Origin: Blasia pusilla
Lineage: Eukaryota
Direction: 5' to 3'
DNA length: 64,000 bases
Assembly: GCA_050084515.1 (NCBI GenBank)
Contig: CM114271.1
Span: 45,818,001-45,882,000, forward strand
Shown: in pieces, positions 16,862 to 49,069 of the stretch
How the letters are laid out: the number at the start of each line of letters is the position of its first letter
Numbering within the stretch: the first letter of the stretch is position 1
The notes under the pieces: model-generated
Told to the model about the DNA's origin: nothing
Database searches by the model: none
The model's input: the letters and a program-made list of their open reading frames with translations, nothing else
Program-made: the position numbers and the translations under genes

Positions 16862-17557
16862 TTAAACCCAAGAGATATGTTGATAATCTGCAGTGCCTAG
16901 TGTAGGGACAATTGGATGATCAGGGCAATAGATCATCCATATGATCTCATTATGTGCAACATGACGCTAGGATTCTCTGCCAGGTGCAAAACCTTCCTCC
17001 TTGCTCGCTGCCAAGCAACCCAAATGCCATGTCTTTGGGCATCTCAAACATTGGACGACGTTTGCTAGATGCTTGGTGCGATGCGTCATGTTGCATGCCA
17101 CACATGTATGGAGAGGGCAACACTGCACATCAAGTGGCAAGCATCCATGATAGAAGAAACGAACACAGAAAGGTTGGGGGCACTGTCTCATATTAGTTTG
17201 AATGGAAGCCATTCTACCACACTTGAAACATTTGTATGTCTCGGAGGTACACTCTGGAAAATACCAAGGGTCGCTCTCCTTGTCCTTTGGAATGACCACG
17301 GTAGGGCAATGGGACACCGTCTGGCCAACTCTACAAACATGGTGAAATTGTTGATGGCAAAGCCTATCACAAATCACTAGATCTCCATGAAAATCGCAAA
17401 TAGCACACAAATGAGGACTGCATTGTCGCAACTCAATATATGAGAATAGGGGAATTTGTGGCAACCTCATGCTCATGTTCTTCCTAGAGTGTGGATTATT
17501 CTTGGCTTGCCCCTTGTACCTTGCCGTTATGGCTAGTGGATATTTAAACATGGACAC
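16862..17557 (-). pseudogene. EDM2/NSD-type tandem PHD-finger cassette with one internal stop
   Basis: CAICDFHGDLVICDRLC...FH; CFKC...CPQPFC...HGC; CPLHTCVAC...CLRCPKTWHLGCL. Reading through TAG at 16967 gives IYCPDHPIVPTLGTADYQHISW. Splice-acceptor-like CTAATTCAG upstream. Confidence 0.7.
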
Positions 17558-17892
17558 TGAATTAGTTATAACTTAACCAAATAGAAGATATAGGCATGCA
17601 TAATTGTAGACAAACTAAAAGACTTAAAAGTCAATTGCTTAGAACTCAACGAAATACTAACTTTCAAAAAAAAAAACTAGTTGACAATATAACTCATGGA
17701 ATTTTTTTTAAGAATGTATGATATTTTAATACCATGATATATGGTGAAGGTACCATATGAGAGTAGTGAGACACTTTGATATAGTGAGAGTGAGATAGAG
17801 AACACATTACATTAGACTTCGTCCTGGTTGGGAGTGCTCACCTTACAAGCATTCATAGGGAGATTCCAATATCAACCAAGATCAACAAATGT

Positions 17893-20203: not shown

Positions 20204-20337
20204 GTGAATTATATTTCTCCTTCAACTACTCTTATAATTTTGTTGCTCTGATTTGACACATACATGCTCAGATCTAGAGCCATAACGCTTACCATCCTCC
20301 GCCCTCAACTACGCCGTGCAATCAAAGTTCATCACTA

Positions 20338-20586
<249 letters not shown>

Positions 20587-21223
20587 GCCTCAAGAAAATG
20601 TGGACCTTCCGTGATCTGCCTTGCTAATCCAGATCTTGAGATACCAAAATCATGCCGTGACACCACTTCAAATTGCGTGTGCGCCAATTATAAAGGAAAA
20701 TAAGCGCTCCTGCATTCAATAAGCTCCCATGTTGAATCAAAGAAGGAAGGCATGCAAATGTAGAAACGAAGGAAAGGAAAGCGCTCAAGAGAATAGAGGC
20801 ATGATACGTATACTCTCAAAGAAGAAACCAAGAAAATAAATGAGCATACCAACTGCCAGGCCACTCCCGATCACACTCTCCTACTACGCCACCACTCCTT
20901 GAGCGACAGAACCCAAAGAAATCAGGAGGTAGACTCGAGCCTCTTCCAATCACGCTCTCCTGCTGCACCACCACTCCCTGAGCTACAGAACCCAAAGTTG
21001 TGCACTTTGCTCGGAAGGGGCTTCAAGTCGCGGCTCAATTTTTGGCTCAAAGCTTGTCTCCGAAGACCAAAACCCTAAACCCAACGAACCCAACTCAAAT
21101 TGAGAGGGAAACTTGAAAGTAAGGACTCCCTTCTTCCCTCTAAAGCTTTTCCATAAAATTGATTTTTTTAGCTAGGAAAGCTAATTTTTGTAAAAAATCA
21201 ATTTAATATATGTAGATGTGACA

Positions 21224-21591
21224 TGTCATGACCATACGGATTATGTCGTAGAGTATAGTGTGCTAGTAGAGGCCATTCCTTATGTAGGACCGTAGTGGCT
21301 TGGTAGAGATGCGGTTCCATACATAGGGTTGGGGGTTACTCAATTGGGGGTGACTTTCCCAATAGGGCCCGCTCTTAGGTTGGAGGATATAAGGTGGAGT
21401 ACACTCAAAGAACAGTCAGTTCTTTGAGTTGAGCCTGTTGCGTTGGGAGTTAGCCTTGGTAGTGAGTAGAGCTCTTGGCTATGGTGTTTCCCGCAAGCTC
21501 CGACCTAGATTCTTCCATCATGGAGTGGGTTTGGCTCGATTGTATGTGATTGTATACGTGTTTTATGACAGTAGGTCTTTCACCGATTTCA
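21224..21591 (+). repeat. Terminal repeat A1 of Gypsy copy 1
   Basis: Matches 30325-30677 with about 6 substitutions and one 15-bp indel by eye; contains TATAA at 21388. Confidence 0.95.
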
Positions 21592-24500
21592 CTCAAAGAA
21601 CTGGAGTAGATCGATGGTAGCTTCGATTGACAGATCAAGAGGGATTTGGTTAGGGTGATTGTGTACTCAGCCGTGGATGTTCGTGGCTTGTGGCCTATGT
21701 TGGAGGTATGAATCTGGTGCGTGGTTGGTTGGGAAAGAAGCGCCTTGGTAAGAGCTTTCCAACGCGCTTTAGATCGCCAGATTTTGTCAAGGGAGTTGGA
21801 AGTTATCAAGGATTGAAGATTCTGGTTCGTGTTCAACGGTTTTCTGATGTGGAGAGCTTGGAGTGCGGAAGCTCTGTTGAAGTTCATCCAGATTGGGTGA
21901 GAGGTTCCTGTTGCTACTCGTATTGTGATCTCATGTGAATCTATCTGCTCGAGTGTGTGGAGCGTTGTGGATTTCTGCGTGCATGAAACTTGGCGGAAGC
22001 GCTGTCGGATAAGTGATTCTGGAGGTGTATGGACAACAAGTTTGTCTGATTTTTAGCTCGGAGTACAGAGCTCGGTTGTAGCTGATTTTTTGTGGAGAGA
22101 TAGCTATGGTGGTCAATTGAATTCTGGTTGAAACAGATTTGATTTCAGTCATAGATTTGTGAAGTAATTTCTGATCAAAATTTCGCGGACTAGCTCAAGG
22201 TATGGCTATGGTGGACAGCGGATCGGAGGGGTTGGTTGGTTGGTGACTCGTTCATTGTTGGAGACGCCTATCCCGTTGGGGGCGCCCTGGTTGGGCCTCT
22301 CTCCATAGCAAAGCATGGCAAAGCGTGGCGAACGGGGCGATAGAGGCTTCGAGGCAACTCGTGGTAGCTCGGGGTGAGTGGGCGTGAGAGGCGGAGTAAG
22401 GAGCAAGGAGCAAGCAAGCAAGCTTGCTTGCTTGGGCGTGAGGCAATTTTTGCAGGATTTGGGATTTGAGTGTTGCATAACTGGTCACCCATCTTTGGGC
22501 TATTCTGCCTGGAGGACGCTTAACTGCTGAGTTCTTAACTATGCCAGTGTACACACTGTTGTAGCTCATTTGGTGCTGTTCGGAGATGTGTTAGGCACTT
22601 TATGCATCTCAGGTTTTTGGTTGATGTACCTCTAGCTCATAGTACGGTGTAGCCTCTCCATGCAAGTGATATTTTCAGGTGCTGCGAGTTCGACTAGCAC
22701 GTCATCGACCCGCGGCGGAGTAGCTATTGCGTTAGAATTGTGTGGTGGGTTTTGTGGATTCATGGGGCACCACGTTTGGTGGATTATGTTACCTTGATTT
22801 CCATTTGCGATTGGAGGGTTGTCGTTGGACTTCCTGTGTTTGGATCCCCTCCATCGGTGCTTCTTGCTTGCGCGCCCATTGTTAGGGTTGACGCTGATTT
22901 CCAGAGTAGTGTTACTCCTGTGTGCTACTGATAGTGAGGCTGGAGTGATGACCAGTAGACCGTGGGAGGCTTCTTGTGGTGATGAGAGGTTAGGTTGCCT
23001 ACACCCATAGCTAGTAGAGCTACAATAGTAGAGCGACATCGACGTCACTTGGTTATTTGGTGGTGGTAATTTGGTGGTGGTGCGGCATCGGCATTGGTCA
23101 TCACGGAGCTGTCGGGTGGTCTGGTTGGGGACCGTGGTGCGGACAGTGGTGGTTTCACACGGAGTGGATTTAGGTATCGGCTACCTTTTCCACTTCCGAC
23201 GGTTGATGAAGAGGAGGACGAGGGTGTTCCAAACACCGAGTCTTCTACGTTGTTATCGAGTGTTGCAACTCCATTGATTTGGGACATGGACGGTGGATAT
23301 GGGGCCATGAAGGGCCCACGAAGATACTCGGGTGCAGTGGGTACCATTGAGTTGGAGGACTTCATGCAAGAGTTTGATACGTGGTGTGATATGCAGATGT
23401 TGTGGAACGCCACGTTGTTTACACCCTTCTTGGCTTGGAAGGGGTTGTTTCAGCACTTGGAAGGACCACCCATGGATGATTACCATGAGTTTAGGAAGGA
23501 CCATGTTGCTGAGATTGAGGCATGGAGACAATATTGGTCTCCAGGCTATGTGTCTATCACCCATGGTGGTATTGGTAGTAGTGCTCCTACTATGCCAGCC
23601 AGCCCGACGTTGAGTGGTACGAGTACGAGCCGGAGTGGAGGTACTAGTGGGGGTACTAGTGGAGGTACTAGTGCCCCACCATCGTTCAACTCGGTTGCAG
23701 AGTTCTTCAAGAGGTTGAAGAAGAACTATCAGGGAGTGAAGACGGAGAAGTTGAGGAATCTTCAGGAATTTGAGCGAAAGAGTGGTGAGAGTCTTCGTGA
23801 GGCATACACTCGTATGCGACGCTTGATTTCAGTTACCCAGGGTGTGACGAGGATCAGCGATCCGATTTTGGTATGGGATCTTGGACAGAGATTTGCGCCT
23901 TAGGGTACGTGATGCTACTCTTATGAGTGATGATTCACCCACATTGACCCATGTGTTTGCTCTATCTGAGAAGATTGAGCTTAACATGGTGAAGGAGAGA
24001 GTGGTGACATCCGCATTCAATAGGGATACATCTACTACTTCTCATGTTCAACCGCCCACCTCACAGTCTCGTAGTAGTGGTGGTGGTAGTAGTAGGGGGA
24101 GTCGTGGGGGGTACACACGACCTCATCCAAGTCCTAGAGGTACACTTGCGCAGAGACCATTGCCTTCATTTGCTACCCCGCAGCAAGGACAGTCATGTTG
24201 GACATGTGGAGGTGATCATGTTAGGAAGTTTTGTCCCCAAGAGGATGGGAGACGGACTTTGGAGGATGGGCCTCAGTCGGCCCCAACTCAGTGTGATCAT
24301 TTGCGGGAGACCAGGTCATCCTCGAGAGCGTTGCTTTGATCTTCATCCGTAGTTGAGATCAGGCCGCGGCCGTGGTGGAGTAGCTCGAGAGGTCGAGGTG
24401 GTAGAGGTGGACGGTGGTTGAGAGCCTCGGTGGCTACCCCTACCACTACGACAGAGTCGGCCTATGGTCGCCAGATTGAGTGATTGGAGCAGAAGTTGGC

Positions 24501-25909
24501 TACTATGGTCGGTATCCAAAGATAGATCACGTTCGGGAGCAGGAGCTTCCACCTCTTATGGAGGGGATGATCTCTCTTATATGGCGAGTGCATCACAGGT
24601 TGAGGCATCAGCTGCAGTTACGAGAGGAGCCACTCGAGCGTCAGAGCCACGTGGTGCTACTGTGGAGTTGGACCCACAAAGGGGTGAGGCTGGGAGGCAG
24701 GCTAGGCTTCCCTAGTCATTCTTGTTGTCTGAGGTGCTTAGGAATCCATCCATGGTTCCTACGCAGCCTATTGAGCCGACAGTGGGGACTGAGGCATCTA
24801 CATCGCGTGTAGTAGACACGGATGCAAAGATCAAAGGCAAAGATGTGCGGATGGCAACTTGATGTTGGGATCCCCATTGTTTTTGGCCACGGAGTCGATG
24901 GCTTTAGGAGTTGACTTAGCTCCTATATTTCAGCTAGCAGCCACATTGTGTGAACGTGGGGGTGTTACTGCTACACGTGTTGAGGTGGATGAGGATGTTG
25001 CGGTGGAGCGACCCTCTATGTCAGGTGTAGCATTGAGTACCAGTGCTACTTGGCAGGCAGCAGCGGCGAAGATGGATGCATTACCAGCCCGGCCAGCCAT
25101 TGATCGTGAGAGGCTTACACCTGGTGTATGTATGTTGGACAACAGTGGGATCTTCCGATTGGTGAGTCCTACAGACAGGTGTATAGACCGGATAGAGTCT
25201 TGTTAGACTCGGTGCTCAACCTTGATGTTGGGAAAGGCGGCATGTATTGGTTTGGGTATTCGGAGGTCGAGCTTGAGCCTTGCCCATTCCAGATTCAAAC
25301 ATCACTTGGAGGAGCCAATGATAGGTCTCAATTCATGACACGGGAAAAGTTTGTTTGCGGTTGAGACCAGATCATGCGATCGATAGCTCCCGGTTGGGAG
25401 TATCTCATGCGGAGTCACATAAGCCGAGTCGTATGATGTACTAGTTGGAGGAGCGATTGTACCCGATGGGTTTTCAGATGGATTATCGGATGGAGACAAC
25501 GTCTTCTTAGACCTGGTTGGCAGTCCGGGATGGACGTATGAGCCAAGTTCTTGTGAGATTTATTTATGGGGCTCGACCAGGAGGGTCTTCCCAACAAAGT
25601 GTTAGCATCTGTGGCTGGTTTTAGTGGAGTAGTCACTTGGCCGGAGACTTTTTGAGGGTAATGTTTTTTCTATGGATTCTCCTGCGCATGAGGAGGTAGA
25701 GGAGGTCCCTATTTTTGCAGCAAAGGGAATCCTCATCGTTGGATGTGCCACTTTGGAGTTCAGGCGGTGCACTACGGCAGGAGGCTTGGTGTGAGGCTAT
25801 TATACCTCACGAGGAAGAGGAGGCCCCACGGCGGACTCCTACTTCTGGTCCAGTTGGGTTATCCCCTTTGGATACTACACCCATTGTATGGTAGTATCCG
25901 CCGGAGGGC

Positions 25910-26740
25910 ATTTGTGTGTTAGATCTCTTTGGTGGGATTAGCACTGGTTTGGCTGCAGTGTTGCATGCCGGTATTCTTGTGCGGAGATACGTGTATGTGG
26001 AGCGAGATGAGACGGCCCAGTGAGTCTCATCCCGACATATTGGTCACTTGATCTAGATGGCCATGTCAAGGTCATACACGTGCTGGTCGTGGTGAGGGAT
26101 TACATGACCCTAGGTCTCGATTGTTTTGGGAGATGTTACGGGTGTTACGACATCTTCAGGTTCATCAGGCACGTGCTCTAGCTTACATTCTGGAGAATGT
26201 TCCATTGTTGGGTGACACTCGGACCCGGATGATGGCGAGTGTTCATGAGGTGCGGTCTTGATTGGACCAGCGGTGTTGTTGGATGCGTGAAGTTGGCTCG
26301 CGTGCACATCGCCCACGCTTGTGGTGGACAAACTTGTTGCTTAGGAGATTCTCGTCGAGCATATGATGTAGTGCAAGGGATCCTCGCTTACAGTGGATAG
26401 TATCTTGGATACTGGGCGACTTTCTCAAGTGGTAAGGGTTATTGATCGGTCACCCATGGCAATGGTGAACCGTGTGGGCCAGCCTAGGATGGCACTACCC
26501 ACATTTGTGAATTTTCCCTCGTCACATGCCTACAGGAAGGTGGTCCGGGGCTTGTATGGGATTCTCATGTGCGGCAGTTGGTGGAGCCTAACGCTGATAA
26601 GAGAGAGCGTGCGATGGGATTTGCTCTTTGGTGTGACAAATGGTTGCTTCTATTTCGAGGCTTCACGACGTCATGTGTTGGATCAGGCCATGGACCTGAA
26701 TTGTTTGACTTGGATTTTGAGTCTTGGTATGGCCGAGCAA
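25910..26740 (+). pseudogene. DNMT3-like C5 cytosine methyltransferase domain in Gypsy copy 1
   Basis: ICVLDLFGGISTG (motif I), YVERD (II), WPCQG at 26061 (IV), ILENV at 26193 (VI), HRPRLWWTNL (VIII), RERAMGF (IX), RRHVLDQAMD (X). Has an internal deletion and frameshifts. Confidence 0.88.
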
Positions 26741-29700
26741 GCGTCGACTTCGGACTATGTCGTGGGTCTTCCACCCTTGTAATGAGCTCGATGGCTACCG
26801 GGGACGGTAGAGGCATTGGTCAGGGGAGAGAGTAGTATTTTGCATCCTTGGAGTAAATGGGATGTAATGGCTGGGCATGTGGAGTTGGTTGCTCATGCTG
26901 GTGGAGGAGTTATTTGCTCAGATGATGGTGTAGCTAAGGGTGTACCATCTTGTAAGGGGGTTGCGTAGCAGCCAATGGCATCGTCCTCTCCCTCTAGTGT
27001 GCCAGTGGAGGAGACTTGGGAGCCATTACTTGGGCCCAAGCTTATAGGAGGTGAGAAACGACGCTTGACACAGTTCCTACGGGCTTATAGGAGTTGTTTT
27101 GCCTTTAGCATGAAGGAGTTGGGTTCTCTGGTTGGACCCGGTATACGGATTGATTTGGCTAGTGATACCCCAATCTTCCGTTTTCCCTACCGATATAGTG
27201 ATATGGAGAGGGACTTGATTAAGAGTAGGACGTTGGACCTTTTGGAGGCTGGATTAGTGGAGTTGTCGCATGGAGAGTATGCATTAGCCATTGTCATGCC
27301 TGCTAAAAAGGATATGCATAGCAACTACACGGATAGGCGGATGTGTGGAGATTACCGTCCTATCAATCGGCAAACCAAGGCTGATAAGTATGCATGCCTA
27401 CACCGAGGAGATCTTTGATGTGGTGGGACAGAAAAGATTTTCAGTATTTTGGATCTTGAGGGCAGATACCATCAATTTCCGATTCGGGAGAGTGACAAGG
27501 CCAAGACAAGATTTTGGGGTGTCAACTCATGGCAAGGATTGTTTGTACAGTGGAAATTCTTACCCTTTGGGTTGAAGAATGCACTTGCCGAGTTTCAAAG
27601 AGTGATGGACAGGATCCTAGTGTGGTTGGATTTTGTTCGGTGTTACATTGATGATATCTTGGTGTTCAAAGAACACGGTGGAGGAGCATCGATACATTTG
27701 CAGATGGTGTTTGAGCGGTTGAAAGCTCATGGTCTACGTTTGCATCCAAGAAAGTGTAAGTTCTTCCATGAGGATGTTGAGTACTTGGGTCATGAGATCT
27801 ATCCATGTGGTTTGGGAGTTCAGCAAGCAAAGGTGAAGGTAGATGTGAGTAGAGTTTGAGCATTCATGGGATTGGCGAACTACTATCGGAGGTATGTGAA
27901 AGGATTTAGTGCTATGGCAAAGCCTTTGAACCAATTGTTGAAATCAGATCAAGAGTGGCACTGGGGAGATGATCAGGAGAGAGCTTTTGTGGAGCTTAAG
28001 GCCCAGTTGGTGGCCGCGCCTATCTTGAGGAGACCTATCAGAGGGCGCCCATTTTAGTTACACACTGATTGGAGTAGGTTGGGACTTGGAGCGGTGTTGA
28101 CACAACATGATGATGAGCACATGGAGTTTGTGGTGGCCTATGCAAGTCGTTCGAATAATGCAGCAGAGTCGCGCTATAGTTCATATGAGGGAGAGTGCTT
28201 GGCAGTAGTGTGGGCTGTGGCACACTTTAGGTGTTACTTGTTTGGCACCCAGTTTATCCTTGTTACTGATCACCAACCGCTCAAGTGGTTGATGGAGTCG
28301 GACAAGCTTACAGGGAAGCTTGCACAATGGGCTCTTATCTTACAGGAGTATGACTTCCAGGTGGTACATAGAGACTGGAGTTGCCAACCTTGATGCCGAT
28401 GGGTTGAGTAGGAACCCATGTACTAGCCAAGAGGATACAATCGGGGCTAGATGGCATGGCGAGGTTGATGAGGAGATGGTGCCAGTTGGCATGCATCCGC
28501 CTTTTATGTTGGTTAGGGATGGACTCTAGTATGGAGGACCACATGATATCTTACTCTAGTCGAGGGTAGATGGCCACCTTCAGATCTTAAGGTTGAGATG
28601 GTGGTATGGATCAGCGTGATATTCATGATGATGCGTTAGTGTTGGAGTTCCTACGGACCAAGAGGGTGCCAGGCATAGTGAGTGCCAAGGAGCGAGACCG
28701 TGTTCTTCAACGTGCTAAGAGGTATCGATTGAGGGAACCCATATTCTCGCGTGTGGGAGGATGGTAGAGTACGAGTAGTGCCACATTTGGCTCAGAGAGA
28801 GCGCGACAGCGACATGCCCATGAGGAGTTGGGAAATTTTGGGTAAAGCGACGTAAAGCTTACTCCTTGGCCAAGACATTGGTGGCGTGGCATGCATACTC
28901 AGATGCAGCAGCTTGGTGTCACGTTGTATGGTTTGTGACCGGTGAGGGCATCATTTAATGCCCCTACACCACAATTACACCCTTGCCTATTATGGGGTTG
29001 GTTTACCGTTGGAGTGTGGACTTTTGCGGGACGTTACCGTTGATCGACATCATCATCGATATGTGTTGGTGATGGTGGAGCACTTCTCCAAGTGGATTGA
29101 GTTGGTGGCATTACGGGACAAGGCAAGTGAGGGAACGGCGTATGCATTTCTGGATAGAGTGCTTAGTCATTTTGGTGCACCAACCGAAGTCTTGACCGAC
29201 CAGGTCTGAGTTTGTGGTGAGTTTGGTCTTGTGTGACAAGGCGTTGATTGATCATCGGACCACATCTCGAGATCATCCAGAGGCGGATGGTTTGGCTGAG
29301 CGTGTGGTTCGAGGACGGTGAAGAGGGCATTGCGCAAGTATGGCCTCTGAAGGGCATCTTGAGACAGGATGTTCGGTTGCCATGGTTAGCCATGGGGTAT
29401 AGGGTTTAGTCGCCAAGCATCCTTGGCTTCCTTCTCACCTTATTTTTCTGTTATATGGCGAGATCTAGACTTGCCAAAAAGAATTGTCGGGGAGTCTAGT
29501 GAGGTGGTGAACCTTGATGACCCAGAGATGTGGATGAGGGTGTGTTCTCGGCGGAGCTCTTTCGAGAGTTATGCCACAACGGCCTTTGAGAATCTTGCCA
29601 TTGCTCAACACAAGGATACGTTTGCGGTATGCAACCATTCGAGGTGGAGGTTATCGACCATCGATTCAGAGGTTCCATGTGGGGACTATGTCTATTTGCA

Positions 29701-30216
29701 GCAGATTGCACCGACAACGTTGGATGTGACGCGCAGCCGCACTATTTTACGAAGTGCGCGAGGTGTTACCTTCCGGAGTTCTCATGTTGGAGGGTCGTGA
29801 TGGAGTTGTTTGGAAGGACCATGTGCGTAATTGTGCGCCATGTCATCTTCCAAATGTGGATGGTAATGTTGACCCAAGCTTAGCCATGATATTTGCTAGC
29901 TTGAGGTGCATGTTGTGTGGATCACTGGCAACGCCCGTATGTTGGTGTGTGATCGGTGTTCTAGGGGTTGGCACATGATGTGTTTGACTCCACGTATGGA
30001 TGTTGTTCCTAGTGGAAGGTGGGTTTGTCCTCGATGTACTTAAGAGAGGTAGATGACTTGATCTTTGCATGATATGGATTACAGATGTGCGACTAACGAT
30101 GGGGCAACCTAGCACCCGGCCTTCTGATTCGGGCACCCAAGAAGGTGTATAGCATGTAGTAGATGTATAGGGCTACCTGGGAGTTAGAGGGACCTAACCG
30201 CAAATTAGGGGGGCGA

Positions 30217-30783
30217 GTTGTGGTACACTTGTGTTTGTGGATACTCTCGTCTATGTTATGTATGTATGTGAGTATGGTATGTCAGCAATGTATGTTGTAT
30301 GACGATGTGGATTTGCACGACAACTGTCATGACCATACGGATTATGTCGTAGAGTATAGTGTGCTAGTAGAGGCCATTCCTTATGTAGGACCGTAGTGGC
30401 TTGGTAGAGATGCGGTTCCATACATAGGGTTGGGGGTGACTTTCCCAATAGGGCCCGATCTTAGGTTGGAGGATATAAGGTGGAGTGCACTCAAAGAACA
30501 GTCAGTTCTTTGAGTTGAGCCTGTTGCGTTGGGAGTTAGCCTTGGTAGTGAGTAGAGCTCTTGGCTATGGTGTTTCCCGCAAGCTTTGACCTAGATTCTT
30601 CCATCGTGGAGTGGGTTTGGCTCGATTGTATGTGATTGTATACGTGTTTTATGACAGTAGGTCTTTCACGGATTTCAGTTGTGGTACACTTGTGTTTGTG
30701 GATACTCTCGTCTATGTTATGTATGTATGTGAGTATGGTATGTCAGCGATGTATGTTGTATGACGATGTGGATTCGCACGACA
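30217..30783 (+). repeat. 3' terminal block of Gypsy copy 1: B1 (30217-30322), AC spacer, A2 (30325-30677), B2 (30678-30783)
   Basis: B1 and B2 are 106-bp direct repeats with 2 differences seen; A2 repeats A1. Confidence 0.95.
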
Positions 30784-33679
30784 GACATGTATAAACCCTA
30801 TCTTATCTTAAAATCTTTGGTGGAAGGAAGACTAATAAAAAAGACCCTATTGTTCTTATAAGAGTTTGATGGAATAAATTATGCCCTATTGTTCTTCCAC
30901 AAAACTTAATAAGTCTTCCGAGGGACGCAATTAAAAAACCCCTAACTTTTTCGCACGTGATGGGGCATTTGTGTGGAAGTGAGACCCCCGAGGACCCTCA
31001 AAACCAAATGAACACCAAATATGTGCCAAACGGAACATCAAAAATCTAGTGGACTCACACTACGATAATCGCGTTTTGGAGAGGCTTTTGGAAAGGTCTC
31101 TTGGTAAAGTCCAAAAGACGAAACGCGGAATAGAGTTGTGCATTTCATGTGTTTGTGGTTGCAACCAGGAAACTTGGACCAAACGTGAACCAAGACTTGA
31201 GATGAGTTGAGTCTTGGAAGGTTGGTTGCCATAGAGGTGAGAATCAATTTTCGAACACGACTAGTGTTTGGGGATTTTGATTGCGTTTTGGACCATAAAA
31301 TTTAGTCCCAAGATGTATTCGGAACAAATAAATACGCGTTGGAAAGCTTATATTGAGACGCTTCCAACACACCAAAAACCTCATCAAACGCATAAGTACA
31401 AGCTGAGATATCGGCCAAAAACAATTGTGAGAGCAATCGGGTTGAGGGCCAATCTGGGGGGGCCCAACTGTCTTTCCCTAAAGTTAGGGGGAGGGCGGGG
31501 ATCCCCAGAAGTACTAGTACTGGGAGTCTCTCCAAGGATTCTTGGAACACGAACCCCACTTTGAGCACCAAACGGCGTCTGAAGGGCACGGGATGGAACG
31601 GGAGTTTGGCGTTAGAACTCGAAACCCAAACTTGATGCAAGGGAGTGGACTTCGTAAGCCACACTTGGATTCCAACCCGCGATTCATTTTTGTGACTTGC
31701 GAGTAGGGACTCATTGGATGTCCATTGGACAATTGGAACCGCCAAGCATTCAAACTCCATTTGAGGTTCCTCAACTGACATAAATTTTGTCCCAAGTCTT
31801 CAAAGACTTGCATGTGTTGTAAACCGCGAAATTAGGAAGGTTGAGCTTGATGAGAGGCCGAGTCAAGAACTCGGCAAGTTAGAACCGCTGATTGATCCAG
31901 ACCTGACTAATGTGAGTGCGTGTTTGGATGCAGATCAACGTTGAGAGCGTGTCCTACTAAATGCATGCTTCCGCAACAACGAAGATTAACGTTCAAGGAG
32001 AATAGACCCACAACATAAGGTGACTTGGCAAAAAAAATCATTTTTTTGTCCTAGTCTTTGATGGGTTTAACTAAAGACTTCCTTGGACTGTAGGAACTTT
32101 TCCACTTTTTCCAATGTGAATTTATTTGTTGAACTTCAAGTTTGTTATTATCTTCTACTTATTGGTGATGGTAGTTGATGTTACTTGATCTACACTTGAA
32201 TATCATCATATGTCAATAAATGATACTTGAAGAAACTAATTATTGGTGTTGATAATTGATATATCTCTTCATTTGAATATCACCTTGCAATCAACAAGCT
32301 TAATTATATTAAAGAGGTAAGACTCTTAACGCAAGACTCTAGATATGAAATTTGCCTCAAAACTCTTTTATTGAAATGAAAATATGCAATAAAGTTTTTG
32401 ATCCAACTTGCTTGTTCATACTAGACTATGGTAGTAAATGTGATTGTATTGTCATGTTTTCCACAAAGCCTTCACCAAAGGCTGAAAAATTAACCTTAAC
32501 GTACCATACATCAAAAGTGGACCCTCGCCGAAGTCCTTAAAAAGTACCTCCCTCCCAAGCTGTAAATGGAGCTCTTCTATATAGATATTTGGCTAACAAA
32601 ATTTTCAGGAGCATTAAAACAAGGATGCTAAAATTGGCTAGTAAAGCTTGCCCCAACAAACTTAAGTATTCACAACTAAAAAATTTACATCATAATTTTT
32701 TTCAAGAAGGGAAATGATCAATAAATTCCTACATGTAAATATTCATAAAATAATAATTGCTCTCACTAGTGATATCATGTTACAAAAATTATACCCTCAT
32801 TCTCGAGTGAAATTAGGTGCCTATTAGGTACTCATGCAATGCATGAGAGAGGTACACGTAACTAGCCCCCAATCTATCCCCACGGCTCTAATTGACCCCA
32901 GATTTACCCGACAAACTCCGAACCGACCCCTAACTTGATTGACGTCATAATTGACTCTAAATCACCAAGAACACATGTTAAACGTGAGTGGGTAAAAATA
33001 TGAGATGTCAACGGGAGAAGAGTTTTGGAAAATTAAAGGGAACTTTGCAATAATAATATAGATCATATGTCAAGAATATTGTAATTTCCTTCTTACGGAG
33101 CTTAGAGGAAAACCATTGTCCTCGGATCCCATGGACCTCAACCCTTCGGGCTCATGGTTAGAACAACCATACCGACATTGAGACACTGCATGTGGAATTC
33201 CACTTCACATTCAAATGGGTCTCTTCCCCTCATGCCATCATTTTCCCTGTCGGTTTCTCGATAAAGCGTAACTAGAAAGAGGAGGTATAAGGACTTGCAC
33301 CATGCCTCCTCAGGTCCCATTTGATGCGCGTAGAAAAAAAAATAGACCATAGGGTCAGACGTCAAAATCCCTAATTTCTATATGATCAAATTCGGTCCTC
33401 GAATGCGGAGTGCCCGGGAGGTGGCTGCACACACTCTAAACTCCAGAATCTAATAATATTAAACTTTCTTTTATGTAAATAGAAGTCATCCATATTCAAA
33501 CACTAGAGGACTATTCAAATTTTAAAAAGCCCTCTTCCTCCTTTCCCTTCTTCATTTAATTGTGTCCTCTTACTTGAACTCCTCTTCTTAAAGTGATATG
33601 TGTCAAAACCAAAAGAACTCTTAGAAGACATGTGTCGACGCATGAAGTTTCTTTTAACTCATCTTCTTTTAATTTTTTA

Positions 33680-34436: not shown

Positions 34437-37400
34437 ATGATAGAGTATGGGAGCGTAGCGGAGGCGGAGGAAGCCTTGGGGCGGGCGTTGAGCAGTTGGG
34501 AGGTGAGATGGTTCAGTTGGACTGCAGATGTCGGTGATTTCCACCTGTACTGCATGAACATCTTGTTTCTTATGATAGTGTACAATGTCGGTCCGTTGCC
34601 CGCGTTTCTCCTGGATGTCTACAAAGTAAGTGCCTTCGAGAAGTATAAGCTCCAACCTGGAGTCTATAACACCAAGTCGGCTGTGATTCAATGCTACAAA
34701 GCGACGACGATCCTCTTCTTCACCGTTGTCGGGCCTTTACAAGTACTCTCATATCCCGTAATTAAGGTGCTCTCTCTCTCTCAAATTGTCACCAGATCTG
34801 TTCGTCAAATTCACTGGCCTAGATTCTCAGCTCGAAGCCGTTGCTCTGGTATATTGTCTCTTTTGGGTAGTCCGATCCGGTGAGGTAGATAGTGTTATAG
34901 AGATCTTCTTAGTTATTGGCTACAAGCTCCGCATCAAGATTGTGAATTGTAACTTCTAGTACTGCACGAGTTAGTGTAATTTGCCTCAATGTAGTACTTT
35001 CTTTAGTTGTCCCTCCCTCTCCACCCATACAATTGGGATCAATGATGGCAAGGCTCCAACGGCCATCTCTCTCTCTCTCTCTCAGTGTCGTCAAGCACCG
35101 TCCAACCAGGGCGCGGGGTCTATGGTCGCAAGGCTACGACAGGCACTACTTAATGAGTACAGTCTCTCAGTGTCGGAAAGAGCTTCTTGGTTGGGAGTTG
35201 GAAGCCCCGCACCATCACTTTGTATGGTCAGCACTATGTGAGTGTCTCCCGCCTCTCAGACAGGCTCTACTTAATGGGTACAGTCTCCTCATGTCATAAA
35301 CAAAGACTGTCCAATCTGAAATAAACAATGACTTTCCAATCTGAAGGTAGAGCTGTGTCGGTCGGAGGAAACAACAAAATAAGCACAACATTCTGAGATT
35401 ACTAGACACAGCAGAAAAATCTTGCCAGGACCAACAGGGGCCCAAAACAAAGGATTTCACTTGAGAAGTAGAATTAGTGTTTGAAACTGAGAGTAAACGC
35501 TATTACAGCAACACTAGACATGTTTCTGATCAAGGGTGGGTCGTACTTAAATGCGTCATCCCGTGATGCAGTACAGATGATTGGAATACATTCAGGCGTA
35601 CCGCTTCCATCTCTCCAAACTGTACTTTTGCAGTTGGCAGTCTACTTCATCGTTGAGGACTACTCCAATTATTGGCTTCACAGATGGCTTCACTCAAAGT
35701 GGGGCTACGATAATATTCACTATGTGCATCATGAATTCACAGCACCAACGAGCTTCACGGCTGCATACTCTCATGTTGGTGAAATGCTTATACTAGGCAT
35801 TCCTACTTTCCTGGGTCCAGCCCTTGTACCTGGACATATGATCACTCTTTGGATTTGGGTAGCCCTCAGGCAGCTGGAAGCAATCGACACCCACAGCGGG
35901 TATGTTGATGAATCTCAGAATCCAGTGACTTGTTGAGAAATCCTACTAGTACATAGCCTTACTTTTTCTTGGAAATCTTGATCCCATGGCTTTTGAGAGC
36001 TATTGTGAGAACATTGTCAGGTTACTTGGAAAGAAGTGTGTGTGCATGTGGGATCTGCCTTCTTTAAAATGAAGAATCTCAATTCTTCTACTGTTATTGT
36101 TAACTCTGATCGCCTTTTCTTTCCGATCATCGTCTTGGGTTCCCATGGACAAAAATCCAATGTTCCATGTTTCTTATTTATTTTTTCAAAAGTTTCTCTG
36201 ATATGAAGTCCTTCGTGTGATCTGTCTGTATTGTGGGTATTCAGGTACGATTTTCCATTCAGCTGGACAAAATTGATTCCCTTGTATGGAGGTGCAGAGT
36301 ACCATGACTACCATCACCAAATTGGTGGTAAAAGTCAAAGCAACTTTGCGTCGGTTTTCACGTACTGCGACTGGCTATATGGCACAGATAAGGTTGGATA
36401 GAGCTTTGGTGGAAATCATGGAAAACTATTGAAGCAATAGTGTAGCATGCTTGTTTCCCTGCTGGCTGATTGCATACATCTCGAGAGGAGGCTAGAGGAT
36501 GAGAGGGAACACCTTCAGTTCATGCCATCTTTAGACACCTATTTATACCACATATTTAGTGGGTCTAGCACCCTACTTACAAATTTTACGAGATATGCTC
36601 CATGCAGCCCTCTAGAACTCCAATGTACAAGATCTATAATGCATGCCATAATATGTACAAAAGTACTGAAGAATCTAAGTTTCGGTTTTGTCCACTACAA
36701 AACCAAAACGTAGATTGTAGTTGACAGGAACCAGAAACCCCTAAAAGTGTTGTGGAAGTTTGTGGGCTTGTTCTCCTTTGATTGAAGCTCTTGTTTTATG
36801 TGTGACTGACGTCTAGAATCTCATGGTTTTTGAACTTGCAGGGGTACAGGTATTATAAGGATGCAATAAGAAAGGTCAGTCCCTCTCTTTCTGAACTTTT
36901 CTCAGAAAAATAATCATTTTGCACGTTATATCCCAACACTCTCACCGAAGGTGTCAAAGTTGGAATTCAGCTTCTTGCCCAAAGAAGTCTTCCACACTCA
37001 TGAGAAAAAATGAAAGCAGGGGTACGGCTTAGCTGTGGAGCAGCATGAATGGTCATGATGTACTAAGATGCCTTTTAAGTGGGAGGTTAGGAAGAAAGCT
37101 GAGTTCTTAGTAATGTTGAATCTCAATTTCCAAGCTTTATTGCCGTTTTCAAATTGTGCATGTTGATCTTCTCTTCAGCTAATGCAAAGTATATTCGACT
37201 ATCTCATCTCCGTTGTCATAAGATGGTCATGTTTCAGTTGACGAATTAGTTACAGATGGGGATCTTAATCCCTGAGTTGTCTGAGAAACTAATCATGTAC
37301 ATTCACTTTTGTGGGAGAAGGCATTCATGATCCAATCTGCTCGTCACGAAGGTGTTCCTTTTTGAGAGCCTGCATTTGACCTGAGGACAACTATTCAGTG

Positions 37401-39416: not shown

Positions 39417-40177
39417 TGTCGTGCACATACACATCGCTACATAACATACATCGTTGTCATCGAACACACACAAACACACACGATCCCATGCTGACTCATG
39501 GCATCCATACACAGAGGCGAGAAGCACCAAAATATCTCCAATCTGTAAAGTAAGATCCAATCTCTCTGTACACCATCTCACACCATAGCATTCAAAGATG
39601 TGCACTATCTCTCATGTCAAACCAAACTCATTCTCCTAATAAAAGGCTTGGGTTACACTCACAAGGCAAGGAACCATAGGTCCGCCGCCTCATGCCAAGA
39701 GGTTCAACAAAGAGAGAATGAGCTCCCAAGTTCTCTTTCCTTGAGGTATACCCCTCCCCTCTCCCAAGCTCTCTCCATGGTAACCTATTCTCCCAAGTCA
39801 CCTCTTTGGCTCTTGACCTGATGTAGGAGGTCAAGGGCCACTTACCAAAAATAAAAAGTCGATCATATATTGAGAATGGTACTTACCTAAAATAGTAAGT
39901 TTCTAAATATGGTCCAAATGAGCCGAAATGAAGGGGAAACCTGCTCTCTCAGGTTTCCTTGGGCCTCAACACGCCATCCTCGAATTCATAGGCCTGTCCT
40001 CCACTACTCGTGCAGACGCTTTGCTAAATCCCACCGATATATCCTAACAATCGTGGCAGCTGTCGTGCGCATACACATCCCTACACAACATACATCGCTG
40101 TCATCGAACACACACGATCCCATCCTAACTCATGGCATCCATACACAAAGGCGAGAAGTACCAAAATATCTCCAATC
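39417..40177 (-). repeat. 3' terminal block of Gypsy copy 2: B1 (40177-40061), GC spacer, A (40058-39544), B2 (39543-39417)
   Basis: 39417-39543 and 40061-40177 are direct repeats differing by a 10-bp indel and substitutions; the element ends GCACGACA. Confidence 0.92.
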
Positions 40178-43100
40178 GCCCCCTAGTTGGTGGTTAGGTC
40201 ACTCTAACTCCAGATAGCCATCTATCCCTACCTACCACGACATACATCTCTAGGACGCTAAGAGCAGAAAGGCCGGGTGCTCATGTGGCCCCATTGTTAG
40301 TCGCCTTCATGTCATCCATGTCACAGAAAAAGTCGGAATCGAAACCTACCTAGTTTCTCCTCTATGTACATGTGGGACACATCCATCGTCCCCGAGGAAC
40401 CCTAGTGAGAGGTGGCGTCAGACATGCCATATGCCAACCTCTCGAACATCCATCATAGACTAGCATCGTGGCCGCACCACGAGCATAACCACACAACATA
40501 CAACGCAAGCTTGCAGGAACTACTACTAAGCTTGGATCTATTGCACCATCAATGTTAGGAAGGTGACATGGCGCACAATTACGCACATAGTCCTTCCATA
40601 CCATACCATCGCGTCCCTCCAGCAAGAGAGCACCGGATGGCAAAACGTCACGCACTCTCAGGATAGTGCGCCTTGTAGTCACATCCAACGTCGTCGATGC
40701 CGTCTGCTGTAAGTAGACATAATCTCCTTGATGAAACCTCCGGATAGTTGGTCGATAATCACACCCCGAATAGTCGCATACCTCAACGTATCCCAATGCT
40801 GCGCAATCGCCAAGTTCTCGAACGCCATGGACATCACTCTCTGAAACAACTCAGCCCTTTGAGAACATGCTCGCATCCATACATCTGGGTCATCAAGGTC
40901 TAACACCTCACCAGCATCTCGACGAATGGCCGTAGGTAAATCTGGCTCTCGGCCATAAAGTAGCAAGTACGGTGAAAAAGATGCTAAGGATGTCTGTCTG
41001 CTGAATATGTATCCCATTTGCCAACCATGGCAACTGGAGGTCCCAATCTCCTAGGTGACCTCTCTGCAAGGTCTTCACCATCTGCACAACTCTCTCCACT
41101 AATCCATCCGCCTCGGGATGATCTCGCGAAGTCGTGCGGTGGTTGATCAACGGCTGATCACACAAGGCCTGGAACTCACCGCGAAACTCGGTACCCTGGT
41201 CTGTCAACACCTCAGCCGGTGCGCCATAATGTCTCAACACTCTATCAAGGAAGGCATAAGCCACTCCCTCACTTGCTTTGTCAGGCAATGTAACCAACTC
41301 GATCCACTTCGAGAAGTGCTCGACCATCACCAACACATAACGACTGTGATGTTCTGTCAAAGGAAAAGGTCCTGCAAAATCCAAACTCCATCTATATCCT
41401 AAGCCCATGATCGGTAATTGATGCAACTGTGGAGTCGGAGCATTGAACGATACTTGGACCCGATCACACACCATGCACTTGGCAACAAACTGGTGAACGT
41501 CAGTCTGCATGCCTCGCCACCAATACTTAATCTGGAGCAAGCTGTACGTCTGCTTCACCCCAAAGTGACCCAACTCCTGGTGGGCATGCTGCACTAGTTG
41601 TGCTCTCTGCAAAGGATGCAGCACTACGCATACTCTACCATCCTCCCAAACCCTCAAAACATGTGTCCCCTCCAAACGGAACTGTCTGGCCCGTTGTAGG
41701 ATCCAATCCCGCTCTCTAGCACCCACGGTGCTTGCAACGCTACCAATACAAAGGTACTCCAAGACTACTCCATCATCATGAATATCTCAGCCACCTGTGG
41801 TCTCCTCACTGGCCTCGGGATCCAAGGACTCTCCACTAGACCTCGCCATCGAAGTCTCCACACTTTGGCTCTCCATAGCCAACATGCCTAAATAGGCTGA
41901 CGCGTGCCATCCTGGCACCAACTCCTCATCACTCTCTCCATGCCATCGAGCTCTAGTCACATCTTGCTGACTCGGGCATGGGTTACGACTCAACCCATCT
42001 GCATCTTGGTTGAGCGTCCGAGGTCTATGTACCACCTGAAAATCATACTCCCGCAACAACAGAGCCCATCTCGCAAGCTTCCATGTAAGCTTGTCGGACT
42101 CCATCAACCACTTGAGTGGTTGATAATCAGTGATGATGGTAAAGGGGTTTCTGAATAAGTAACACATGAAATGCGCGACAACTTACACCGCAGCCAAGCA
42201 CTCACCCTCATACAAGTTGTACTTCGCCTCTGCAGCGTTGTTCGAGTGGCTAGCGTAAGCCACCACGAACTCTCTACCCTCATCATCATGCTGGGTGAGC
42301 ACCGCTCCAAGCCCTAACATGCTCCAATCTATGTGCAATTGGAAAGGACGCCCCCTGATCGGTCTCCTCAAGATGGGTGCAGACGTCAACCTGTCCTTGA
42401 GCAATTGAAATGCTCGCTCTTGCTCATCCCCTCAGTGCCACTCGTGATCCACTTTGGTCAGCAAGGTCAGCGGCTTCTCAATCGAACTAAATCCCTTGAT
42501 GTACCACCGATAGAAGTTCGCCAATCCCATGAATGCGCGAACACGGCTCACATCTGTAGGGCGTGGAATGCGTGAGATAGCCTCTACCTTCGTTTGATGA
42601 ATACCAAGGCCCCCTGGGTATATCGTATAACCCAAGTACTCAATCTGGTCGTAGAAGAACTTGCACTTGCCTGGATGTAGCTTCAGCCCATGTAATTGCA
42701 ATCGTCAAAACACCTCCTCTAGATGTCGCTCATGCTCCTCAACCGTGGCGCTAAAGACTACGATGTCATCAATATAACACCTAACAAAATCCAGACTAGC
42801 CAAGATCCTATCCATGACCCTCTGAAACTCAGCCGAGGCCTTCTTTAACCCAAATGGTAAGAACCGCCACTAGTACAAACAATCCTTCCCGTGAGGATCG
42901 ATGCCCCAAAATGTTGTCTTTTGCTTGTCCTCCAATCTGATTGGCAGCTGATGGTATCTGGCTCGCAAATCCAATGAATTGAAGATCTTTGCCTGACCAA
43001 TCGCATCAAAGATCTCCTCACGGGTGAGCATGGCATACCTATCGGACTTTGTCTACCGATTGATAGGTCGATAATCTCCACACATCCGCCTATCCGTCCA

Positions 43101-43724
43101 GTTGCCATGCACATCCTTCTTAGCGGCCATAATAGTGGCAGATGCATACTCCCCATACGACATCTCCACTAGTCCTGCTCCAACCAAGTCCTGGCTCCTA
43201 CTCTGAATCAAAGCCCTCTCCATATCACTGTACCTGTAGGGTCGTCCGAAGATCGGTGTATCACTCGACAACTCAATGCGGATCCCCGGTCCCTTTAGCG
43301 TACCCAAATCCTCCATGGTAAACGCAAAGCAGCTCCTATAACTCTTGAGGAACTGATGTATTTGGCGCCGCTCTCCTCCTGTCAACTTAGGGCCCATATT
43401 TGGCTCCCAAGTCTCCATCGTGACTACGGTAGGACTCTCCACCGCGGGTATCGGTGGTTGCTATGGTGCAACCCCGTCTCGAACAACAACAATCGGCCTC
43501 TCTCCGGCAGCCAATTGTAAACTCTGATCTCCTCCACGTGGAGTGCCCGTAACCACGCTCGATGCTGTGGCTATCATCTCTTGGCGTACCTGCAAAACAT
43601 CCCAAGAAGTCCAAGGGTGTCTCTCTCGATCTCCCCTAGTGTGTAGATCTCTTCAGGTCTCGTCCCCAACCACTACTTCCACCATCTCGGTAGGCATGGA
43701 GCCCACCAATGCAATCCCTATGAT

Positions 43725-44710
43725 CTATCGCGATCTCATACGACGCTGCTCAACCATTCCCAAGCTGAGGATCCATGTCAAGTAGTTCAGGTCCATTGCT
43801 TGACCCAAGACATGGCGTCGTGATGCCTCTGACAGTGACGATACTGCCGTCACTCCTGGGGGAAATCCCATCGCTCGCTCTCTCTCGTCGGCGTTGGGCT
43901 CCACCAACCGCTAAACCTGGTCATCCCAAACCAAGCCAAGATCGGCCTCCTTGTATGCATAGGAAGCGGGAAAACTCACAAACGTGGGCAAGGCTACCTG
44001 CGGCTTGCCTACCCTGTTGACCACAGTCAACGGTGGTTGATCATCGTGCCTCACTGCCTATGAGCAATGATCAGGATCCAAAATAGAATCCACTAACAAA
44101 TGGGAGGGGCGCTCCACTCTCGCATACGCCCTCCGTAACACCGCATCGGGCACCAAGTTGGTCCACCATAGACGCGGGCGATGGGTTGTAGAACCTACAC
44201 TCGCCGCGTCCAAGAACACTGCTGGGCCAATCCAGGCACGCACCTGATGAGCACTCGTCACCATCCGTGACCTGGAGTCTCCTAAGATCGTCACATTCTC
44301 CAGAATGTAGGTTGGAGAATGAGACTGGTACTCCTGCAACTACCGTAAGACCCTCAACATCTCCCAAAATAACATGGATCGAGTGTCAACCAACCCACTG
44401 CTTTGTCCAGCACTCGATTGGCCTTGACATGGCCAATCGGAAATGACCAAATAAATGGTGCCTAACCGGTCTAAGTCCTGTGTCCCCAGCAATGAAATAT
44501 CCCTCGGTAGGGAACTATGGTACCCTTGTACCGCGGACGCAGACAATAAGTCAGGAAAACATAGGCATAACTGCGCCACATGTCATAGTGAGACGCGTCT
44601 CGCAACATCATCTCTCTCCACATACACGTGCTGCTGCACTCGCACTCATGCCTACAAAACAGCAGCTAACCCGGTGCTAATCCCTCCAAAGAGATCTAAC
44701 ACTCCAATAT
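43725..44710 (-). pseudogene. DNMT3-like C5 cytosine methyltransferase domain in Gypsy copy 2
   Basis: IGVLDLFGGISTGLAAV, YVERD, DWPCQGQS (44424-44432), YILENV (44292-44300), HRPRLWWTNL, ERERAMGFPPG, RRHVLGQAMD; one frame interrupted by stops. Confidence 0.92.

Positions 44711-49024: not shown

Positions 49025-49026
<2 letters not shown>

Positions 49027-49064
<38 letters not shown>
49027..49064. repeat. (GA)19 microsatellite
   Basis: Perfect dinucleotide run. Confidence 0.95.

Positions 49065-49069
<5 letters not shown>

Follow-up and report, generated by a model that had tools for sequence, protein, structure and literature searches.

The closest described system to the retrotransposon reported here is KnitGypsy-Dnmt3 of Klebsormidium nitens, in which, according to the main text of its description, a Dnmt3 lies within the Pol region of a Gypsy element and the repeats follow the DIRS-like order A-coding-B-A-B (de Mendoza et al. 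2018, Nat Commun, PMC5890265). The same text suggests, as an untested idea, that the element methylates its own cDNA, and gives SymbioDIRS-Dnmt3 as a further bearer of Dnmt3 (PMC5890265). The wording 'streptophytes (Gypsy-DNMT3)' appears in a 2026 preprint. The plant Tcn1 and TAR lineages are predicted to self-prime (Neumann et al. 2019, PMC6317226), and retrotransposons bearing a plant homeodomain (PHD) finger exist, for which it has been proposed that the finger reads histone tails and guides insertion (de Mendoza et al. 2019, PMC6673714, citing Perez-Alegre 2005). These three papers are cited throughout for parts of their text. The element described here is located at 21224–30783 of a 64,000-nucleotide stretch of contig CM114271.1, which was analysed as a whole and is referred to below as the window. 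It belongs, almost beyond doubt, to a green-lineage family of the Ty3/Gypsy type that encodes a Dnmt3-like cytosine-5 methyltransferase (MTase) between the protease (PR) and the reverse transcriptase (RT) and a PHD finger after the integrase (INT). The window family is of the same kind as KnitGypsy-Dnmt3. An earlier note, made from the letters of the window, knew of no description of this combination, a claim that has to be given up because KnitGypsy-Dnmt3 has the same domain idea and repeat layout in the text cited (PMC5890265). The further idea of the note, that the element may methylate its own cDNA, coincides with the suggestion already made in that text.

The A1...B1-A2-B2 layout of the window family, in which the inner joint is a mirror of the outer ends once joined, is also that of the DIRS, Ngaro and PAT tyrosine-recombinase retrotransposons, SymbioDIRS-Dnmt3 among them. 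The window family differs from these in having no tyrosine recombinase and in having a DDE integrase (H2C2 and rve parts), TG...CA ends, 4-bp target-site duplications and a Gypsy-type RT within a backbone of PR, RT, RNase H (RH) and INT. DIRS elements, for their part, insert without a target-site duplication. The mechanism of self-priming is known from Tf1/sushi. Like Tf1/sushi and Tcn1, the window family has no tRNA primer-binding site (PBS), and the predicted 5' stretch of its RNA would complement a site of 11–15 nt by the 5' repeat; unlike them it has an MTase, split repeats and, where they have a chromodomain, a PHD finger, and the likeness is one of features rather than of reference sequences. 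A PHD finger is shared with the PHD-bearing retrotransposons, to which the window family adds the Dnmt3-like MTase and the split repeats. Perez-Alegre 2005 reportedly concerns REM1 of Chlamydomonas.

Architecture of the element

The region 21224–30783 of the forward strand is a single Ty3/Gypsy-type retrotransposon copy (copy 1), decayed and dead, with the order gag-PR-Dnmt3-like MTase-RT-RNase H-integrase-PHD. It starts with TGTCATG and ends with CGACA, and it is flanked by the 4-nt target-site duplication GACA, identical at 21220–21223 and 30784–30787. Repeat A1 (21224–21591, 368 nt) opens with the TGTCATG start and holds a TATA-like motif (21387–21392) and a putative R-U5 region. At the other end, the polypurine tract aaattagggggg (30204–30215) lies immediately 5' of repeat B1 (30216–30322, 107 nt), which ends in GCACGACA. 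Joint inspection places a 2-nt spacer, AC, at 30323–30324, giving a B1/A2 joint of CA-AC-TG, and repeat comparison places A2 at 30325–30677 (353 nt) and B2 at 30677–30783, the latter terminating in CA and sharing one A with A2 at their joint. A1 and A2 are 98–99% identical besides one 15-nt indel, and B1 and B2 are 98% identical with 2 mismatches in 107 nt. The coordinates of the four repeats give the layout A...B-A-B.

Stops and frameshifts disrupt the coding region, and its MTase has lost 137 nt by deletion. The coding region is preceded by a leader of approximately 1.5 kb (21604–23069) without a recognised open reading frame (ORF) on either strand, which is dissimilar to the shorter leader of the relative L055 and is covered by RNA reads at low depth. 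The nine leader and antisense ORFs gave no domain with Pfam, and neither an env-like ORF nor a tyrosine recombinase was found among them. The gag region (23070–24339) has a weak Retrotrans_gag match (E 0.0014, under the cut-off) and a CCHC knuckle, CWTCGGDHVRKFC, within 23848–24339. The frameshifted aspartic protease region (24862–25560) is recognised by alignment with the LLDSGAQ region of the Marchantia protein P0001. The next region encodes the Dnmt3-like MTase (25901–26750), broken, with motifs I, IV (PCQ) and VI (ENV), AHRPRLWWTN and ERERAMGF spread across three frames. Its Pfam DNA_methylase match (PF00145, E 4e-7, 26052–26261) covers PCQ and ENV, motif I (VLDLFGGISTGL) is found near 25925 in a different frame from that match, and the deleted stretch of about 137 nt is gone from between 26041 and 26053. 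RT and RNase H (RVT_1 and RT_RNaseH by Pfam, 26969–28393) occupy one frame with 3 in-frame stops. The integrase, with its zinc-binding part and rve core (28597–29800), is frameshifted and has an rve Pfam match at 28946–29209. The PHD finger remnant (29898–30037) begins with CMLCGS and then shifts frame; its counterpart in copy 2, described below, is a Pfam PHD. The PR and the PHD remnant of copy 1 were detectable solely by tblastn with intact relatives.

A second, older copy of the same family, truncated at its 5' side, lies at 39417–45310 on the reverse strand and has a DNA identity of approximately 68–78% with copy 1. Its terminal repeat B2' (39417–39543) was identified by repeat search and is followed by A2' (39544–40058), a GC spacer at 40059–40060 and B1' (40061–40177), with the polypurine tract aactaggggg at 40179–40188 preceding B1' in the direction of transcription. 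The Pol region (40368–44702) is one frame with stops, and Pfam analysis of 40300–44702 gave the order DNMT (6.5e-7)-RVT-RNaseH-Integrase_H2C2-rve-PHD (1.1e-7), with the DNMT at 43740–44702, RT-RH at approximately 41790–43202, integrase at approximately 40908–41786 and the PHD finger at 40368–40502. A protease fragment (45056–45310) is the last recognisable part, and the element ends 5' of it; the 5' A' and gag were absent from the window by blastn and tblastx. A different Gypsy-type RT fragment (46664–47482, reverse strand), with approximately 25% identity to the family RT by tblastn, lies beside the cut 5' side of copy 2. The family is represented a third time at 48817–49207 (forward strand) by an older A-B fragment, which ends in CACTATA, is approximately 70% like the A'-B' of copy 2 and has no adjoining Pol. 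Recombination or an alternative integrase cut may have left it as a solo A-B.

Taken together, the two larger copies contain the Gypsy backbone in the order PR-RVT_1-RT_RNaseH/RT_RNaseH_2-Integrase_H2C2-rve (Pfam, with PR by alignment to relatives). The MTase matched only DNMT3A, DNMT3B and DNMT3C when compared with Protein Data Bank (PDB) sequences (26/26 matches). At the C-terminus of the integrase, Pfam found no Chromo match in copy 2 and found a PHD finger (PF00628) there instead. Pfam also gave no Phage_integrase match, the sign of a tyrosine recombinase, in 27 ORFs and read-through frames of both copies, in which the rve integrase is present. The reading given in the earlier note, that of one element with TG...CA ends, a 4-bp duplication and this domain order, is thus borne out by the repeats, the GACA flanks and the Pfam and tblastn domains, as is its diverged second copy with the same order and the same B-A-B end.

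Ends, joints and target duplications across the family

Metagenome contigs were scanned with an alignment of 13 MTase-bearing Pol proteins, which gave 80 loci. Repeats were self-compared in 30 loci with long matches, the A and B repeats of relatives were mapped onto 31 loci, and loci sharing flanks were removed. All loci inspected are degenerate, as is copy 1. B-A-B closes the 3' side of 16 independent metagenome loci and of the two window copies, and a single B closes 12 further independent loci, of which the 7 with both ends visible have the form A-int-B. Ordinary paired long terminal repeats (LTRs) were found in none of the loci examined (18 B-A-B copies and 12 single-B loci), and none of the 20 elements whose 5' side is visible has the mirror form A-B-A-int-B. 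The A...B-A-B ends are therefore a trait of the family, as had been proposed from the two window copies, and the paired LTRs that the same proposal had named as the finding that would count against it did not appear.

Among the 16 elements with both ends visible, a 4-bp duplication beside A-start and B-end is perfect in 8/16, matches at 3 of 4 bases in 4/16 and is without match in 4/16; by chance alone, a perfect match would be expected in 1/256 of elements. Together with the rve match, these duplications agree with the DDE integrase proposed for the element. The start of A and the reversed end of B form inverted arms, TGTCRTG. The B1/A2 joint is CA-NN-TG with exactly 2 nt between the two repeats in 16/17 independent loci and in both window copies; the spacer is AC, GC, AT, AA, GT or TC, and the remaining locus (L023) has a deletion at the joint. 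The A2/B2 joint has an indel or retained PBS bases in 9/18 elements, the variation being 0–3 PBS bases kept, 0–5 bases of the B start lost, or insertions of 18–19 nt. In the L019 subfamily the A-end and B-start are not TG/CA. A G-run stands immediately 5' of B1 in the family.

Three loci (L055, L068 and L021) share an identical insertion site, with the same flanks and the duplication CATA, and have the spacer TC in L055 versus GC in L068 and L021. This difference is either allelic or assembly variation.

Priming and transcription

Priming by the element's own RNA instead of a tRNA is probable from the arrangement of the sequence. A TGG that would mark a tRNA-type PBS lies no more than 5 nt from the A1 end in 0/10 elements with a 5' side. 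The motif TGGTAGC, located 24 nt past A1, was considered as a tRNA PBS and rejected, as it is not conserved in L055, L003 and L050. In the window, the PBS-like site ACTCAAAGAACTG at the A1 end (21591–21603) is, over its 13 nt, the perfect complement of a putative self-primer, CAGTTCTTTGAGT (21417–21429), located 29 nt downstream of the TATA-like motif. The expectation of such a complement by chance is below 1e-4 per element (positions times 4^-13). In L032, L033 and L002 another 15-mer beside A1 complements a 15-mer 32 nt downstream of GTATAAAAGG. The primer and PBS words thus differ between two subfamilies and are complementary in each, so the two sites covary. The TATA box, primer word and PBS word are kept in the window subfamily, and the PBS-like site is conserved in L055, L003 and L050. 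A direct copy of the PBS word (CACTCAAAGAAC, 21402–21413) lies just 5' of the primer word, and the two pair in an 11-bp hairpin (21402–21429); the copy and hairpin are conserved in the window subfamily and not in the L019 subfamily. The absence of a tRNA PBS and the self-priming suggested in the earlier note accordingly find strong support in the missing TGG and the complementary, covarying sites.

Three RNA-seq runs under one species label were mapped onto 21100–30900, and 1851, 1737 and 1969 reads were placed per run, with 30/30 bins covered. Only 67, 49 and 66 of these reads are at least 99% identical to the window and nearly all others are 95–99% identical; therefore the reads derive from related copies. 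Most carry 1-nt indels relative to the window, and at 26052 and 26056 loose ends reveal the MTase segment lost from copy 1. First mates lie on the minus strand rather than the plus strand at a ratio of at least 10:1, which reflects sense transcripts if the libraries are of the dUTP type. Read depth falls from 36–60 over 30256–30582 to 6.5–10 over 30583–30900, and from 17–32 over 21100–21426 to 2–5 over 21427–21753. Both drops fit RNA 3' ends within A, with B2 little or not transcribed. Related copies of the family are still transcribed in a liverwort-like land plant.

Selection on the methyltransferase, and matches of the PHD finger

The ratio of nonsynonymous to synonymous substitution (dN/dS) was calculated by the Nei-Gojobori method between the window subfamily and the L055 group. 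It is 0.20–0.31 for the MTase, 0.12–0.16 for RT-RH and 0.16–0.21 for the integrase, and the MTase has evolved under purifying selection. Purifying selection on the MTase is likewise given for KnitGypsy-Dnmt3, with Ka/Ks < 0.2 in the cited text (PMC5890265). Between close copies of the window family the ratio is 0.4–0.7 in the MTase, RT-RH and integrase alike, as is expected of decay after insertion.

The top PDB matches of the PHD finger are CHD4, KAT6A, PHF12, PHD1 of KDM5A/B, ATXR5, PHF21A and AIRE, whose PHD fingers are mostly readers of unmethylated H3K4. The MTase would most likely methylate the new cDNA or the insertion site, and the PHD finger would most likely direct the integrase to H3K4-unmethylated chromatin.

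Relatives in the green lineage

A protein search with RT-RNaseH of the element returned two Marchantia polymorpha gene models as the top matches, with 70–74% identity, both of them with PF00145. Lower matches include many green-lineage proteins with RT-RH-INT-PHD, with PF00145 present or not, and those with names come from Klebsormidium, Closterium, Chara, Haematococcus and Pleodorina. The assignment to a land-plant lineage made from the sequence agrees with these Marchantia models as the nearest named relatives and with the liverworts that are the top named matches of a host gene in the window. The intact relative P0016 (2358 aa) has the complete order gag-knuckle-PR-MTase-RT-RH-INT-PHD. A search with the MTase of copy 2 found 44 proteins, including Calypogeia fissa, at least 14 Marchantia models and two Sphagnum species. 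Fragments of this family account for many Marchantia and Sphagnum models annotated as 'hypothetical protein', 'CCHC-type domain-containing' or 'DNA (cytosine-5-)-methyltransferase'.

An RT-RH tree of 133 rows was built with FastTree, with arachnid and frog sequences as the outgroup and without reference sets. Both window copies group with the two Marchantia proteins and the loci L055 and L050 (support 100), inside a green-lineage clade of 124 rows that includes the Klebsormidium proteins (support 99 against the animal outgroup). An MTase-like region is present in 61/120 related proteins (blastp against residues 941–1300 of P0016, E < 1e-5), and the proteins that bear it span chlorophyte and streptophyte names. 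The MTase stands before RT, as in the window, in 26/61 and between RNase H and integrase in 35/61; the latter 35 form one subclade of the RT tree (among P0063–P0120, including P0066 of Haematococcus and P0092 of Pleodorina). From these two positions it follows that the MTase either shifted within Pol or was captured twice.

Proposed replication cycle and alternative explanations

The explanation that we favour overall, by a small measure, is that a self-primed cDNA with B-NN-A repeats has its ends joined and is then opened by the integrase at the inner CA-NN-TG. The RNA would start approximately 30 nt past the TATA box within A1 and end within A2, which would leave B2 untranscribed. Its first 11–15 nt would fold onto their complement beside A1 and prime the minus strand, as in Tf1, and the polypurine tract adjoining B1 would prime the plus strand. 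With the primer site beside A1 and the polypurine tract beside B1, the cDNA would carry B-NN-A at both ends. The duplications and the inverted arms show that the integrase nevertheless uses the A-start and the B-end, and the outer cDNA ends (A-end and B-start), which in most subfamilies are not TG/CA, would not be used by it. The U5 end would first be joined to the B start, through circle formation or an end-to-end template switch, and this would produce the ragged A/B joint. The inner CA-NN-TG within the left repeat, which resembles a circle junction, would then be opened on both strands by the integrase and the DNA inserted with a 4-bp duplication, and the product of joining and inner cut would be A-int-B-NN-A-B. 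The A-int-B copies and the solo A-B would arise from other pairs of CA-NN-TG sites or from later recombination between repeats.

The retroviral 2-LTR circle is a dead end, and its junctions hold PBS-derived bases and small deletions. The family resembles such a junction at both of its joints, the inner B/A joint with CA-NN-TG and the inverted arms TGTCRTG and the A/B joint with PBS-derived bases and small deletions; unlike the retroviral circle, the joined form would be the obligate substrate in the window family. This scheme of joined ends and an inner cut would account for the primer site, the polypurine tract, the duplications and the ragged versus exact joints, but not for the missing mirror forms. 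The latter too would be accounted for if, instead of a free circle, there were an end-to-end template switch of limited extent. Taken by itself, the step of joining followed by an inner cut is given a little less than an even chance.

Several points weigh against this reading and the results on which it draws. With its two identical CA-NN-TG sites, a free 2-LTR circle would be expected to yield the mirror form as well, so the 0/20 observed calls for an added asymmetry. The scheme is put together from the scars left in genomes, and the cDNA, the circle and the joined ends are postulated in it; ragged A/B joints and short forms could be explained by later mutation or recombination. As to the RNA, 1784/1851 reads of run X21 are 95–99% alike to the window and come from other copies, A1 cannot be told from A2 or B1 from B2 in the reads, and the sense orientation assumes the dUTP-type library. 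Reads also pile up with starts at 21385 (15 at a depth of 44 in X21, 10 at 40 in X23), which is 32–34 nt upstream of the predicted RNA start; this pile coincides with a 5-nt indel among family members and may be an alignment break. Among the relatives, the MTase-bearing Klebsormidium protein P0085 has a long branch and falls in the opposite half of the green clade (FastTree only), and Pfam fails to detect the MTase in three of the relatives that carry it.

An alternative, to which we give a modest share of the probability, is that the integrase works as a cut-and-paste transposase on linear or concatemeric cDNA and pairs any two CA-NN-TG sites without a circle. Neighbouring sites would give A-int-B, born short and dead on arrival, and A-int-B-A-B would come from the next more distant pair of sites on a cDNA that an additional template switch had extended. 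The 12 independent single-B loci are as this predicts, and among the 7 with both ends there are 3 perfect duplications (L003, L020 and L073) and 2 that match at 3 of 4 bases; the solo-like A-B at 48817–49207 also fits, and limited extension after the switch would explain the 0/20 mirror forms. However, short and solo forms are equally expected from B1-B2 or A1-A2 recombination after insertion, so that the duplications cannot discriminate, and no concatemer was seen. Retroelement integrases do not usually cut 100–300 nt from a DNA end.

Somewhat less probable again is a cycle like that of DIRS and Ngaro in which an integrase has replaced the tyrosine recombinase. The RNA would run from inside A1 into B2, the B1-A2 joint would serve as the template or splint by which the lacking outer parts are rebuilt and a circle is closed, and the integrase would open the B2/A1 joint copied from B1/A2. 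The repeat layout is called typical of DIRS elements in the cited text (PMC5890265), the inner joint resembles an uncut integrase site in 16/17 loci, and such a cycle likewise needs no tRNA primer. The RNA depth, however, falls inside A2 and hardly covers B2, and a polypurine tract exactly 5' of B1 with a self-primer site exactly 3' of A1 is the arrangement of an ordinary LTR cycle. The raggedness of A2/B2 in 9/18 elements is a better fit to a joint remade in each cycle than to one that is transcribed and inherited, and the frames tested contain no tyrosine recombinase.

That the element is an ordinary one with an LTR of B-A or A-B, its odd ends due to rearrangement, nesting or assembly error and its MTase a decaying passenger, is very improbable: copy 1 and all inspected loci are degenerate and the window holds only two copies, as this would have it, but the B-A-B layout stands in 18 independent places with differing flanks and with duplications at A-start and B-end, recurs in subfamilies approximately 70% alike and is reported for Klebsormidium in the cited text (PMC5890265), the loci examined contain no paired LTRs, the MTase has a dN/dS of 0.20–0.31 between subfamilies and is present in 61/120 related proteins, and the transcribed copies retain the MTase segment missing from copy 1.

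With self-primed cDNA, joined ends and an inner cut as the preferred cycle, a wider reading may be put forward tentatively, at clearly less than an even chance. An old Gypsy clade reaching from chlorophytes to bryophytes would have a permuted LTR cycle with joined or circular cDNA as the obligate integration substrate, would have converged on the DIRS/Ngaro layout with a DDE enzyme, would carry a selected Dnmt3 and a PHD finger of the H3K4me0 type, and would still be transcribed in a land plant. If this is true, a clade with a selected Dnmt3, a PHD finger and transcription could write methylation onto its own new copies.

Comparison with KnitGypsy-Dnmt3

The window family shares with KnitGypsy-Dnmt3, as described in the cited text, the Dnmt3-type MTase in a Gypsy Pol and the A-coding-B-A-B layout, and both fall in a common green-lineage RT clade. 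Other branches lie closer than the window family to the MTase-bearing Klebsormidium protein P0085. It differs in its host, a liverwort-like land plant, with relatives annotated in Marchantia, Calypogeia and Sphagnum. The main text on KnitGypsy-Dnmt3 is silent on a PHD finger, on a PBS or self-priming and on target duplications, and it presents the acquisition of Dnmt3 as specific to the K. nitens lineage (PMC5890265), whereas the MTase-bearing relatives found here span chlorophytes and streptophytes.

In a literature search that left figures and supplements, most subscription journals, Repbase and Dfam outside, no account was found of the family in a land plant (Marchantia included) or of its PHD finger, self-priming, duplications or junction structure. 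The features not found in print are the occurrence in bryophytes, the 16 metagenome loci with a shared B-A-B end, the 4-bp duplications at A-start and B-end, the exact CA-NN-TG versus the ragged A/B joint, the covarying self-primer, the strand-biased RNA and the purifying selection on the MTase in this family.

Other features of the window

The window is rich in transposon remains. By eye, 2773–3165 (forward strand), 59098–59706 (reverse strand) and 63049–63540 (reverse strand) resemble a piece of a Copia-type RT and pieces of Helitron or Pif1-type helicases. On the reverse strand, 16967–17572 is a Cys/His-rich ORF whose spacing is PHD-like (CAICDFHGDLVICDRLCHQQFHHVC...) and whose position is unrelated to the element. 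Just 5' of copy 1, a long GA-type simple repeat (20278–20703) leaves several frames open (RERERE...). An exon of a fatty-acid-hydroxylase/sterol-4-alpha-methyl-oxidase gene is located at 35478–35936 on the forward strand, or 35565–35930 when delimited as a sterol methyl oxidase exon, and its best named matches are from liverworts, at no more than 72–76%. Either it is a diverged paralogue or the host is a liverwort that the database lacks.

Conclusions

Retrotransposons with their own de novo DNA methyltransferase invert the usual picture of host versus transposon, and the descriptions so far come from dinoflagellates and one charophyte. The Gypsy-DNMT3 kind extends to bryophytes, where it is transcribed and its MTase is under selection, which makes this picture testable in a tractable land plant such as Marchantia. 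Host DNMT gene counts in bryophytes may be inflated by gene models derived from these elements. In one half of the clade the MTase precedes RT and in the other it follows RNase H, ahead of the integrase, a difference relevant to whether the capture happened once or several times. The structure of the ends, with 4-bp duplications, an exact inner joint, a ragged outer joint and a covarying self-primer, offers a testable scheme for how a DDE integrase may make DIRS-like split repeats.

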